Positions 7,123 to 9,933 are shown, counted from the first letter of the stretch. The stretch is DNA of 40,883 nucleotides from a virus (IMGVR_UViG_2923334124_000004); one strand, 5' to 3'. Numbers and translations: made by a program. Notes: a model not told the origin generated them from the letters alone.

Positions 7123-8042
7123 TACTGCATATCCTCCGGTCGGTTGATTTCAGGTTCCGGTTCGGTCAGCCAGGCGGGGGCATCGTTACCCGATGGAGCG
7201 GCCTCAAGGTCAAACGTCTCACGTAATGCATGAACACTGCGTTCAATCTGGCAGACCAGACCGGCCATGAAATCTCTGGGGGTATCGATCATGTTTTTGG
7301 TGCAGTATTCACACAGGGTCTCAAAAACACTGGACAGCCGGACGGCGATAGCCGATTCGGCCTCAACCGCTAATGCCGTCACTTCCGCCCGCAATTTTTT
7401 CAGTTCTTCGTCTGGCGGCGGAGGTTGCAGGCGCGATTTCTTCTCCAGTTTTGTGGCCAGTTCGTTGATTTTTTCGTCCTTTCCGGCAAGCACCTGTTGC
7501 TGAGCTGCGTTGGTTTCGCGCGCTTCACGCAGGGCGGCCTTCAGTTCGCGGCTGGTCATGCGATCAATATCATCAAGCGTTGCACCGGCGACGGTTCCAC
7601 CATCAGCTAATGCGTCGAGTTCTTCGTCATCCAGAACCATCAGTTCATATAACTTGGTTTTTCCCAAAACGCTCAGCGCTGAGCGTTTTGGCTGTTCATC
7701 TCCATTGCCGAGAAATTTCACGCTGGCCTGCATCATGCGACGAGCTACCTGTGGTGCTAATCCGAGGTCGTTTTCCAGAATATTTGTGAAATCACCATGC
7801 GGTTCATTTTCTTTTAAGATGATCAGCCGCTTACCCGCTTCCAACATAGATTCAGCACTCTGCGCCATATAAAAACGTGCTTCGTGAACGATGCGTTCAC
7901 GTTCATAAGGCAGTCCATCACCAAACTGCTGCATGATCTCCATGCGATGCTGTGTCATGGCATTCAGGCTGACGTTGAGATCATCCGACAGCGGTACATC
8001 GGCGTTCAGTTCAGTGTTAATCGGTGATTTGGTACGTCCCAT
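7122..8042 (-). CDS. hypothetical early protein (acidic, coiled-coil rich)
   Basis: 306 aa ORF with long helical/coiled-coil stretches; no confident family assignment. Confidence 0.45.
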   Translation of the reverse strand: MGRTKSPINTELNADVPLSDDLNVSLNAMTQHRMEIMQQFGDGLPYERERIVHEARFYMAQSAESMLEAGKRLIILKENEPHGDFTNILENDLGLAPQVARRMMQASVKFLGNGDEQPKRSALSVLGKTKLYELMVLDDEELDALADGGTVAGATLDDIDRMTSRELKAALREARETNAAQQQVLAGKDEKINELATKLEKKSRLQPPPPDEELKKLRAEVTALAVEAESAIAVRLSSVFETLCEYCTKNMIDTPRDFMAGLVCQIERSVHALRETFDLEAAPSGNDAPAWLTEPEPEINRPEDMQ

Positions 8043-8052
8043 TGATTACTCC

Positions 8053-8367
8053 TTACAAACGACTACCTGAAATGACACGTTGGTTAATTTCGTTAATACG
8101 ATCCTGTGCACGTGCCATCTCGTTACTGTGGGCCATGGCGATCTGCAGTAACTGGATGCCCGGTGCAAAACGTCCGTTCTCCAGTTTCAGAGCCAGCCCT
8201 TCTTCAATGAGGGTGTTGAGTGCCCGGTTGATGTTTGCCGGTGACTCGTGCAGTGCTGTCGCCAGTTCACCGTTAGAAATACCGTTCAGGGCATGACCGC
8301 GCAGCGCTTTGAGTACCCGGAGGATGCGACTGCCGGAGCTTGAAACATTCGTCTTACTCATCTGCAT
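8053..8367 (-). CDS. winged-helix/HTH DNA-binding protein
   Basis: 104 aa; SRILRVLKAL...ISNGELATALHESPANINRALNTLIEEGL looks like an IclR/MarR-type N-terminal HTH. Confidence 0.45.
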   Translation of the reverse strand: MQMSKTNVSSSGSRILRVLKALRGHALNGISNGELATALHESPANINRALNTLIEEGLALKLENGRFAPGIQLLQIAMAHSNEMARAQDRINEINQRVISGSRL

Positions 8368-8413
8368 ACCTCTTTTGCGATATGTGATAACCTTTTACAA
8401 AGACTCAAAATAT

Positions 8414-8602
8414 TTAGGCCGCCTGAGCTGTTGATTTCAGTCCCAACTTCACGGCGATTTCATGGGATTTACCGTAACGGGCTTTGGTCTGCCCGTTGAG
8501 AACGCGGTATACCTCATTGCGGTTGTAGCCGTTTTCTTCTGCCCAGCGGGTGAAAGTGATCCCGCGCTGGCGGAAGAGAGCTTTGACTTGTTCTGCAGTC
8601 AT
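8414..8602 (-). CDS. Ner-like DNA-binding protein (Cro-like early regulator)
   Basis: 62 aa; first gene of the leftward operon, divergent from the repressor; strong SD (AAGGAGA) upstream of ATG 8600-8602; resembles Ner/Nlp-type HTH. Confidence 0.5.
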   Translation of the reverse strand: MTAEQVKALFRQRGITFTRWAEENGYNRNEVYRVLNGQTKARYGKSHEIAVKLGLKSTAQAA

Positions 8603-8654
8603 CGTTGTCTCCTTTGTTGATGCAATGATGTTTGCCTTATATGTGTTAGATTAT

Positions 8655-8672
8655 TGCTCATAATTATGAGCA
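8655..8672. promoter_or_regulatory. 18-bp perfect palindrome TGCTCATAATTATGAGCA, candidate operator
   Basis: Exact dyad symmetry in the 93-bp intergenic region between the divergent ner-like and repressor genes. Confidence 0.5.
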
Positions 8673-8695
8673 TATCAAGATAGAGATTCACTTTT

Positions 8696-9052
8696 ATGAG
8701 CAAAGATATAGGAGAGCGCGTTATTTCTGTGAGGAAGAAAGCAGGGTTGAACCAGAGAGAATTTGCAGCTCGTTTAGGTATTTCTAATGGTGGTATCAGT
8801 CAGATTGAAAATGGAAAGGCGATGCCTGGAGGGGAGTTTCTGTTAAAGATGCATCAAGAGTTTAATGTTGATGTAAATTGGTTGCTCACTGGAATGAGCA
8901 CAGATGGTATGACTAGAAACCAGAATCAAATTTCCCCAGAAAAACAAAAACTAATAGATACTTTTGACGACATGACACCAGACCAACAACGCTCATTTCT
9001 TGAGATTGGGCGATTCTATACTCAGCCAAAACCAGGAAAAATCGCAGGCTGA
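8696..9052 (+). CDS. XRE-family HTH repressor (prophage immunity repressor candidate)
   Basis: 118 aa; N-terminal NQREFAARLGISNGGISQIENGK is a classic XRE/Cro-CI HTH; divergent from the early operon; no S24 peptidase domain. Confidence 0.7.
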   Translation: MSKDIGERVISVRKKAGLNQREFAARLGISNGGISQIENGKAMPGGEFLLKMHQEFNVDVNWLLTGMSTDGMTRNQNQISPEKQKLIDTFDDMTPDQQRSFLEIGRFYTQPKPGKIAG

Positions 9053-9137
9053 TACTGACCCGGACACAAAGGACAGGTGGTTGATCTGGATGCTTTCAGA
9101 AAACATCGCCAGTGACATAGTGGAAGTTGTTTGGTTT

Positions 9138-9170
9138 ACCGGAAAGCATTGTGCTTTCCGGTTTTGTTTC
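9138..9170 (+). terminator. rho-independent terminator downstream of the repressor gene
   Basis: Stem ACCGGAAAGCA / TGCTTTCCGGT with 3-nt loop, followed by TTTGTTTC. Confidence 0.55.
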
Positions 9171-9933
9171 AGAAGTTGCAGATTAGCAGTTCACGGCGCG
9201 GCGTGGGTTTACCCGCCAGACTGTAGTTGATATTCACTGTCTGTATGTTCAGTCCAGTGAACACCTCGCGCATCTGCGGGATGTCGTTCACCGAAATTAT
9301 CATTTTTCCTCTGATGCACCGGGCCAGCTCTGCCAGCCGCGAGTAGTTCCCTTCAGGAAAATCCACACCATAGCCTTCCGTACCCAGGTACGGTGGGTCG
9401 CAGTAGAACAGCGTGTGCGGACGATCATAACGCTCAATGCACTGTTGCCAGTCCATGTGTTCTATGACTGTTCTGGAAAGCCGCAGGTGTGCCGCTGACA
9501 GTTCTTCTTCAATACGTAGCAGGTTGAAGCGTGGCGGGGATGTGGTGGAGGTACCGAAGCTGTGCTCTGCCACCTTGCCGCCAAACGCCTGCTTCTGAAG
9601 GTAGTAGAACCGTGCCGCACGCTGGATATCCGTCAGTGTTTCTTCCGGGGTGATCTGCAGCCATTTGTAGATCTGACGGCTGACCAGCGCCCATTTGAAC
9701 TGGCGGACAAATTCTTCCAGGTGATGCTTTACCACCCGGTACAGATTCACCAGTTCACCGTTGATATCATTGATGACTTCGATCTTGCCGGGTGTCTTAA
9801 GAAAATAGAGCGCTGCTGCCCCACAAAACGGCTCCACATAACATTCATGCGCCGGAAACAGCGGCAGAATGTGTTTTGCAAGGCGGCGTTTGCCACCAAT
9901 CCACGGCACGATGGGTAATGTCTGCATTTTCAT
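9169..9933 (-). CDS. Dam-family N6-adenine DNA methyltransferase
   Basis: N-terminal PWIGGKRRL...FCGAAAL (AdoMet-binding) and DPPY catalytic motif; start set to ATG 9931-9933 (the track ORF runs to 10023). Confidence 0.8.
   Translation of the reverse strand: MKMQTLPIVPWIGGKRRLAKHILPLFPAHECYVEPFCGAAALYFLKTPGKIEVINDINGELVNLYRVVKHHLEEFVRQFKWALVSRQIYKWLQITPEETLTDIQRAARFYYLQKQAFGGKVAEHSFGTSTTSPPRFNLLRIEEELSAAHLRLSRTVIEHMDWQQCIERYDRPHTLFYCDPPYLGTEGYGVDFPEGNYSRLAELARCIRGKMIISVNDIPQMREVFTGLNIQTVNINYSLAGKPTPRRELLICNF

Follow-up and report, generated by a model that had tools for sequence, protein, structure and literature searches.

Does the short inverted repeat between the first gene of the early operon of a transposable Escherichia coli prophage and the gene that faces it serve as the operator of an immunity repressor, and is such a switch native to this group of phages or borrowed from elsewhere? 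We examined this in a 40,883-nucleotide stretch of viral DNA (IMGVR_UViG_2923334124_000004, referred to here as the window), in which a 93-bp gap (8603–8695) separates a ner-like gene with its ATG at 8602 on the minus strand from the gene for a 118-aa protein with its ATG at 8696. An earlier note on this DNA had placed an 18-bp perfect palindrome in the gap, and this is where it lies, with TGCTCATAATTATGAGCA forming a perfect 9+9 palindrome at 8655–8672 (see Table 1 for all features). The same note proposed that the palindrome is the operator of the adjacent XRE-type repressor, and that a lambda-like operator and repressor had been grafted onto a Mu-type transposition module. Our analysis of the sequence, its relatives and predicted structures supports the first proposal and argues against the second, and we suggest that the 118-aa protein is probably the lysogeny (immunity) repressor, acting at a primary operator (O1) in the early promoter Pe and at auxiliary sites.

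Table 1. Features of the repressor–ner-like region (window coordinates; the operators and promoters are predictions).
Feature	Position	Strand	Basis or remark
ner-like gene, 62 aa	8414–8602	-	ORF; first gene of the early operon
Conserved leader/backbone segment	8603–8654		ner-like Shine-Dalgarno and block ATGCAATGATGTTTG
ner-like Shine-Dalgarno, GGAGAC	8612–8607	-	In the conserved leader
Candidate extended -10 of a repressor promoter, TG-T-TAGATT (TGnTAGATT)	8644–8652	+	Relaxed scan
Pe -10 hexamer, AATAAT	8655–8650	-	Promoter scan; base 8655 common to O1
O1, primary operator (predicted), TGCTCA-TAATTA-TGAGCA	8655–8672		Fills the 17-bp Pe spacer
Pe -35 hexamer, TTGATA	8678–8673	-	Promoter scan; inside the variable cassette
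Exchangeable immunity cassette (Pe -35, O1, O2, HTH-coding part, O3)	8655–8940		Borders of blastn similarity
O2 (predicted), imperfect, GATTCA-CTTTTA-TGAGCA	8685–8702		Overlaps the repressor start codon
Repressor gene, 118 aa, HTH_3	8696–9052	+	ORF and Pfam
O3 (predicted), intragenic, TGCTCA-CTGGAA-TGAGCA	8883–8900		Codons 63–69; exact arm match
C-terminal module, tail QPKPGKIAG	8936–9049	+	Common to four HTH types
Intrinsic-terminator-like hairpin	9138–9162	+	3' of the repressor gene; 11-pair stem, tail TTTTGTTT

The phage itself could be placed with some precision. Positions 8000–9200 match, at 100% identity, Escherichia phage PhiKM (PQ738613.1), a phage obtained from a uropathogenic strain of E. 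coli with Bcepmuvirus in its taxonomy line, and the gene order also matches, so that membership of Bcepmuvirus is given by identity and synteny with a classified member. The region is present at ≥99% identity in ~390 of 5,426 complete E. coli genomes (roughly 7%), including many O25b:H4-ST131 isolates. The early operon runs leftward on the minus strand from the ner-like gene through genes for a 104-aa IclR-type HTH protein, a 306-aa DUF3102 protein and a 105-aa ORF to a 589-aa transposase, in which a Pfam scan found an rve core only and no MuA-type domains. The element is a BcepMu-type transposable prophage and not a relative of Mu in the narrow sense, and because the transposase is without MuA-type domains, a repressor of the Mu c type is not to be expected here.

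The 118-aa product fits this expectation. It matched HTH_3 (PF01381) over residues 12–63 with E = 4.6e-15 and 55.8 bits (cut-off 23), and HTH_19 was also matched, the two together spanning residues 6–66, with no other Pfam families found; in particular, the scan gave neither a peptidase S24 nor a Mu-repressor-type DNA-binding domain at E ≤ 0.01. The earlier description of a 118-aa XRE-type repressor without an S24 domain is therefore correct. Among proteins of solved structure, its sequence is closest to those of the 434 repressor (E = 2.3e-11) and P22 C2 (E = 9e-10), and an AlphaFold model (pLDDT 79) consists of a HTH domain at residues 5–65 (helices 5–16, 20–27, 31–38, 46–56 and 60–65), a disordered linker at 66–80, a helical hairpin (81–92 and 95–109), and a disordered tail.

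The palindrome on its own proves little, because 0.21 perfect palindromes with 9-bp arms are expected per window in first-order Markov simulations, and the 40.9 kb contain two with arms of at least 9 bp (8655–8672 and 7664–7691). Its half-site, TGCTCATAA, has three exact copies in the whole window, all of them inside 8655–8702, the third at 8694–8702 across the repressor ATG, while copies with one mismatch are at chance level across the window (12 against 7.5 ± 2.8 expected). The arm pattern TGCTCA-N6-TGAGCA has two exact matches in the window which are 228 bp apart, 8655–8672 and 8883–8900, and with up to two mismatches there are seven matches against 2.2 ± 1.4 expected, a number reached in none of 100 shuffles (0/100). 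The further half-sites which the earlier note had thought worth seeking are thus present, one as the third exact half-site on the start codon and another as part of a second full site inside the repressor gene.

Only one sigma-70-type promoter was called by the promoter scan between 8300 and 9250, on the minus strand and with 10 of 12 consensus matches, and we refer to this as Pe. When the same region was scanned more simply in 20 related loci, the local dyad was the 16–18-nt spacer of the best minus-strand promoter in 17 of them, and reading by hand found an equal-scoring promoter at the dyad position in L028 and L036; the relatives carry an equivalent -10 (C/A/TATAAT). As O1 occupies the whole of the Pe spacer, a bound repressor would exclude RNA polymerase, and this block would silence the operon from the ner-like gene through to the transposase. 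The position in the promoter spacer, the conservation and the co-variation with HTH type described below all support the palindrome as an operator of the adjacent XRE-type repressor, and we consider it very probable that O1 is the operator through which the 118-aa protein represses Pe. The 434/P22-C2-like HTH would most likely bind TGCTCA-N6-TGAGCA as a dimer, with O1 the strongest site.

The 20 related loci represent seven repressor types and come from E. coli, Klebsiella, Serratia, Symbiopectobacterium, Mixta, Photorhabdus, Brenneria and metagenomes. Heteroimmune relatives match the window at 69–96% up to position 8654 (85–96% for the E. coli prophages) and not at all from 8655, with blastn similarity returning inside the repressor gene at 8938 (L003) or 8963 (L002). 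Directly after the conserved ...TAGATTAT, in the same position throughout, the dyad is specific to the HTH type: TGCTCA-N6-TGAGCA in type A (the type in the window), (T/A)TCCCAT-N2-ATGGGA in type B, TATACAC-N4-GTGTATA in type C, GTGCAGA-N4-CTCAC in type D, GAGAAC-N4-GTTCTC in type E and TGTCTAA-N4-TTAGACA in type F. Within type A we compared ten distinct genes which share the recognition region GISNGGISQIE and have 57–78% protein identity overall. The O1 arms are kept in these ten loci with the single exception of one base in L036 (TGAGCG), and no relative was found that shares the recognition helix but lacks the palindrome arms, a case that would have spoken against an operator. The centres vary (TAATTA, CAATAA, TTATTT, TTATTA, TTATAA, TAATTG and TTAATG), and so although the 18-bp perfect palindrome is present in the window as claimed, it is not conserved as such in the relatives; the conserved part of the dyad is the pair of 6-bp arms, and the AT-rich 6-bp centre is variable.

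These comparisons also bear on whether the palindrome is simply a chance AT-rich feature, or a RNA or DNA hairpin rather than a protein site. About one-fifth of windows of this size would be expected to contain a perfect palindrome with 9-bp arms, but the arms show sequence conservation with none of the compensatory double changes of a hairpin, the centre drifts with the loss of perfect symmetry in relatives, the dyad sits in a promoter spacer and upstream of the predicted Pe start, and a Rfam scan of the whole window found no family. We regard this explanation as extremely unlikely. The non-random nature of the palindrome lies in the clustering of half-sites, the repeated arm pattern, and the conservation of the arms together with their co-variation with repressor type.

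A second possibility is that the palindrome is bound by the ner-like protein, which takes the position of Cro, and not by the 118-aa protein. The palindrome is directly upstream of the ner-like gene, and Mu Ner is known to bind between divergent promoters. The 62-aa ner-like product matched phrog_925 ('HTH DNA binding protein', E = 3.8e-33), scored 17.9 bits against HTH_35 (Mu Ner, PF13693), which is below the cut-off of 25, and has a homologue in Pseudomonas phage Bise annotated as 'Ner-like antirepressor'. It is, however, 66–100% identical among phages with unrelated repressor HTH domains and wholly different dyads: in the type D locus L003 the ner-like protein is 100% identical to that in the window, the repressor HTH is 23% identical and the operator, GTGCAGATTATCTCAC, is unrelated. 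Because the ner-like protein is the same in L003 where the dyad differs, the dyad follows the repressor and not the ner-like protein; it changes along with the HTH type of the repressor, and further copies of it lie inside the repressor gene. A ner-like site at the palindrome is accordingly very unlikely, and the ner-like gene belongs to the shared backbone outside of the immunity unit. The block ATGCAATGATGTTTG at 8620–8634 is nearly invariant in an alignment of 18 loci and may be where the ner-like protein binds, as this protein presumably acts within the conserved leader.

Two additional sites were predicted for the 118-aa protein. O2 matches O1 at 12 of 18 bases, with only 3 of 6 consensus bases in its left arm, and its centre is 30 bp from that of O1; it would be a weaker site covering the start codon of the repressor. 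O3 is centred 228 bp from the O1 centre, inside the repressor gene, and here the coding sequence itself allowed a test for constraint. Among codons 1–72 of the ten type A genes, 37 encode a residue that is invariant and are degenerate at the third base. The third base varies in 33 of these and is fixed in four, S2 (AGC), L63 (xTG), L64 (CTC) and S68 (AGC), which are precisely those with their third base inside an arm, TGCTCA or TGAGCA (such a coincidence has a probability of 1/C(37,4) = 1/66,045 = 1.5e-5). In the same ten genes codon 67 is always xTG, and the first base is always A in codon 3, where the residue varies (I/K/N), and in codon 69, where it also varies (T/S/N/M). The O3 arms are invariant in all ten, with variation in the centre and in amino acids 65, 67 and 69. 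The fixed bases reflect selection on the DNA sequence, namely on the O1 arm pair.

It might be argued that O3 and the start-codon half-site are by-products of coding (WLLTG(M/V)S and MS, respectively), leaving a switch with a single operator. Cro/CI-type HTH domains often end in WLLTG, genes commonly begin with ATGAGC, and the relative in the Pseudomonas B3-group phage Fc02 has no clear intragenic copy, with only a candidate with two mismatches found there. Against this, there is no variation in the first base of codon 69 or in the third base of L63, L64 and S68, whereas the other 33 comparable codons all vary, Leu64 is always encoded in the ten genes by CTC, which is a minor leucine codon in E. 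coli, and the bases that do not vary match the O1 arm sequence exactly. We consider a coding by-product fairly unlikely, and lean towards O3 being a functional site.

Comparable sites occur in other repressor types, although for types C and D this is based on 2–3 sequences each. In these, the dyad has a second copy +29 to +31 bp from O1, at or beside the start codon, and a third, inside the gene, at +176 to +191 bp; in type D this third copy (GTGCAGTTATCTGCAC) is a perfect dyad. O2 and O3 most likely aid O1 through cooperative binding or looping, in which dimers would be joined via the C-terminal hairpin, perhaps as tetramers, and they may also throttle the repressor's own expression. The spacing between O1 and the third site differs across the types (228, 191 and 176 bp) and does not correspond to a fixed number of helical turns, and because of this a looping geometry is not obviously conserved; we regard DNA looping specifically as a tentative and rather doubtful part of the model.

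O3, if functional, would also have a consequence for the way in which specificity is exchanged. The similarity borders suggest that the swapped immunity unit is a segment of ~285 bp made up of the operators and the HTH-coding part, in which specificity would reside, and that exchange between related phages has one border at the Pe -10 hexamer and the other in the repressor linker. As the HTH-coding sequence carries O3, the DNA-binding domain and all three sites would move as one unit. Three chromosomes (CP027534, CP018979 and OZ547152) each carry a type A and a type D prophage together, as is expected if the cassettes define heteroimmunity, and the repressor cassette is the segment that differs between the co-resident prophages.

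We next consider how the repressor might itself be expressed. The standard sigma-70 scan called no promoter on the plus strand between 8300 and 9250, and a relaxed scan found only the weak candidate extended -10 listed in Table 1, which is located at -49/-48 in nine of ten type A loci (TGnGATTAT is found in L032). The candidate sits in the conserved backbone, where conservation could have other causes. We infer that it may be the repressor's own promoter, in which case the hexamer would overlap the Pe -10 and transcription would start inside O1. Given such a start and the overlapping -10 hexamers, Pe and the repressor promoter would be mutually exclusive and both would be sensitive to the occupancy of O1.

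It should be noted that the 118-aa protein might bind the dyad but act only as an early regulator or superinfection-immunity factor, and not as the repressor that maintains lysogeny. The lack of a promoter from the standard scan would be consistent with this, as would the GenBank record of PhiKM in which the 118-aa ORF is unannotated. However, no other regulator gene is transcribed away from the early operon, the gene is followed by a terminator of its own, its predicted site covers the early promoter, homologues in the same position in the B3-group phages and BcepMu are annotated as repressors, and its segment is the one that differs between co-resident prophages. We consider the more limited role to be improbable and retain the lysogeny repressor as the preferred reading. 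Loss of repression would then allow Pe to yield the ner-like protein and the transposition genes.

How repression is lost is a separate question. RecA-stimulated self-cleavage is impossible as an induction route because the S24 domain is absent. A search of the window for LexA boxes (CTGT-N8-ACAG with up to one mismatch) gave 19 matches against 15.2 expected, none of them at a plausible promoter, and the sequence provided no link to SOS. Similarly, no paralogue of the C-terminal module, as might be expected for a SinI-like protein or antirepressor, was found in the window (no tblastn match below E = 0.6), and PHROGs and Pfam gave no antirepressor families for the neighbouring proteins of 71, 134, 242, 105 and 306 aa, which all have function-less annotations.

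Attention is drawn instead to the C-terminal part of the repressor. The C-terminal 40 residues are 52–62% identical across HTH types A–D, compared with just 23–27% for the N-terminal domains, and the tail (...PKPxKxAG) is conserved despite its predicted disorder. The C-terminal 46 aa had only 11 HMMER matches among 1.84 billion representatives, mainly the C-terminal ends of small XRE-type repressors or of fragments of these, with two weak matches in the much longer proteins of 382 and 609 aa, and a sequence search with the C-terminal 53 aa against solved structures gave nothing significant. The module is narrow, specific to this group of phages and without a functional clue. The conserved module and tail are the most plausible target for induction, by an antirepressor, as SinI, AimX and MOR are in their systems, or by a protease; ClpXP is the protease that acts on the Mu repressor. 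A joint reading, in which a sub-genic cassette of ~285 bp includes its own operator O3 and is joined to a shared C-terminal induction handle, is possible, though we would place it a little below an even chance.

Several known systems invite comparison. In lambda, three adjacent operators common to the repressor and Cro lie between PR and PRM, a feature which is not found here, and lambda CI and LexA have a C-terminal S24 domain where the 118-aa protein is predicted to have a two-helix hairpin over its C-terminal 40 aa. The fold of the N-terminal domain matches that of P22 C2 (TM 0.88–0.90 normalised to the target, rmsd 1.2–1.4 Å), and the locus resembles those of 434 and P22 in having two conserved operator arms flanking a variable AT-rich centre; the centre of the 434 and P22 operators is not contacted by the repressor. 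It differs from both in having a 40-aa helical hairpin and no S24 domain, in having no tripartite OR with an adjacent PRM, and in that the protein in the position of Cro does not share the operators. Foldseek placed the SinR of the SinR/SinI pair (1b0n_A) as the best full-length match (E = 2.7e-4), although the fit is loose and dominated by the HTH (TM 0.47–0.54, rmsd 12 Å), and also returned DdrO and 9sf2, the repressor of the arbitrium phage Phi106 with AimX. In the SinR and AimX-type systems a small HTH repressor carries a C-terminal helical hook, which in SinR-like repressors multimerises, and is inactivated by a small antirepressor; the likeness to them is one of size and of the order of HTH, linker and two helices; no SinI-type match was found in the Pfam scan.

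The predicted operator layout is closer to that of TP901-1 CI than to that of lambda. In TP901-1 the OD site is some distance from the promoters. TP901-1 CI is a repressor of 180 aa that forms hexamers through extra C-terminal domains and has MOR as its antirepressor, and the third site in our window differs in being inside the repressor's own coding sequence. Common to both is a repressor without a peptidase domain and with three sites (PMC7250872), predicted in silico in our case. Mu is similar in having a divergent gene that silences an early transposition operon, several operators (O1–O3), and a Ner-type first early gene, whereas the repressor here is of the HTH_3 type and the transposase has the rve core only. 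The Mu c repressor has a winged-helix domain that it shares with MuA.

A small XRE-type repressor facing a ner-like gene is also present in related enterobacterial prophages and in the Pseudomonas B3-group phages, and the repressors of BcepMu, phiE255 and the B3-group phages share the same genome position opposite the ner-like gene, with different operator sequences. That of Fc02 is 31% identical over its full length and ends in KKAG, and Fc02 has the dyad TGGGAC-N6-GTCCCA (6-6-6) with a further half-site beside the ATG. In the annotation of BcepMu, gp17 is named as the lysogenic repressor and gp16 is described as DNA-binding (PMC2628397), and phiE255 differs from BcepMu in its own lambda-CI-like regulator (gene 46; PMC2920897). 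The proposal of a lambda-like operator and repressor grafted onto a Mu-type module is not borne out by these comparisons: in Bcepmuvirus and its relatives this arrangement is the native one, the transposase is unlike MuA, there is one predicted operator in Pe with two sites downstream and no tripartite OR, and the protein in the Cro position lies outside of the immunity unit.

XRE-type repressors were already known from the annotation of BcepMu-like and B3-like phages, and searches of the open-access literature gave annotation-level mentions only and no operator descriptions for either group. What appears to be new is the arrangement of three sites, the site inside the gene with its footprint in synonymous codons, and the sub-genic cassette from 8655 to ~8940. 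The switch is of an ordinary kind and does not change our understanding of phage switches, but the synonymous signal at O3 offers a clean example of a predicted protein-binding site constraining codon choice within the gene of the protein that would bind it. Repressor–operator pairs with at least six specificities on one scaffold could be of use in design, or for the deliberate derepression of prophages. For this family of phages, the operators and cassette limits would allow heteroimmunity types to be called from sequence alone and double lysogens to be explained, and if the joint reading of cassette and shared C-terminal handle is true, one signal could de-repress co-resident heteroimmune prophages together through the constant hairpin and tail.

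The design of the E. coli prophage immunity switch recurs at the equivalent place in Pseudomonas phage Fc02, a member of the B3-group, where the dyad is accompanied by an extra GGGAC half-site 4 bp upstream of the repressor ATG, and the C-terminal ends of the two repressors are also alike (...GKKAG in Fc02 and ...GKIAG in the E. coli prophage). The C-terminal module, the helical hairpin and tail common to four of the repressor HTH types, was also found joined to a different N-terminus in the database protein P0018 (the N-terminus is named AlpA-family at source), and it is likewise contained in the chimeric or truncated ORFs P0024, P0025 and P0028, which are probably rearrangement products or the result of mis-called starts. 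The 118-aa repressor ORF itself was left unannotated in the PhiKM GenBank record, which instead annotates a 41-aa antisense ORF, and in RefSeq E. coli genomes it is annotated as a 'helix-turn-helix domain-containing protein'.

Features in and around the immunity region of the prophage and its relatives
Feature	Sequence or size	Record	Coordinates	Location or equivalent
Perfect palindrome	CCAAAACGCTCAGCGCTGAGCGTTTTGG (28 bp)	Window	7664-7691	Within DUF3102 early gene
Variant leader	GATACAACTATGTTTGTAC	L039, L006		Window 8615-8640
Antisense ORF	41 aa	PhiKM		Window 8993-9118
LexA-like string		Window	9237-9252
6-6-6 dyad	TGTTCAGTCCAGTGAACA	Window	9246-9263	3' end of dam methylase gene
Repressor ORF	118 aa	PhiKM PQ738613.1	29435-29791	Window 8696-9052
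Mor-domain gene	182 aa	L028	2359-2907	Between ner-like gene and operator region
Fc02 dyad	TGGGAC-ATCAAA-GTCCCA	L040	1167-1197 region

Two further symmetrical sequences were noted in the window. The dyad in the dam methylase gene lies about 590 bp from the predicted operator O1. Each of its arms departs from the operator arm at a single, symmetrically placed base, and it overlaps a string that matches a LexA box with one mismatch. The palindrome in the DUF3102 gene is the only perfect one in the window with arms of at least 9 besides that of O1, and its symmetry is maintained in relatives by paired changes (the version in locus L008 is CCAAAACGGCAAGCGCTTGCCGTTTTG, and a single mismatch occurs in the counterpart in L010). 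This palindrome resembles a bidirectional terminator, and could be an attenuator, RNA hairpin or protein site inside the early operon.

In L028, the closest type-A relative (the repressor is 78% identical), the Mor-family protein is the first gene read from the predicted leftward early promoter, Pe. Up to three matching places were found per E. coli genome, and the NZ_CP027534.1, NZ_CP018979.1 and NZ_OZ547152.1 chromosomes each harbour two or three BcepMu-like prophages whose immunity cassettes differ, the pairing in these being type A with type D. The same variant leader is found in L039, which has a type-A cassette, and in L006, which has a type-F cassette, whereas the common leader is present in other type-A loci, so immunity cassettes and backbones reassort.
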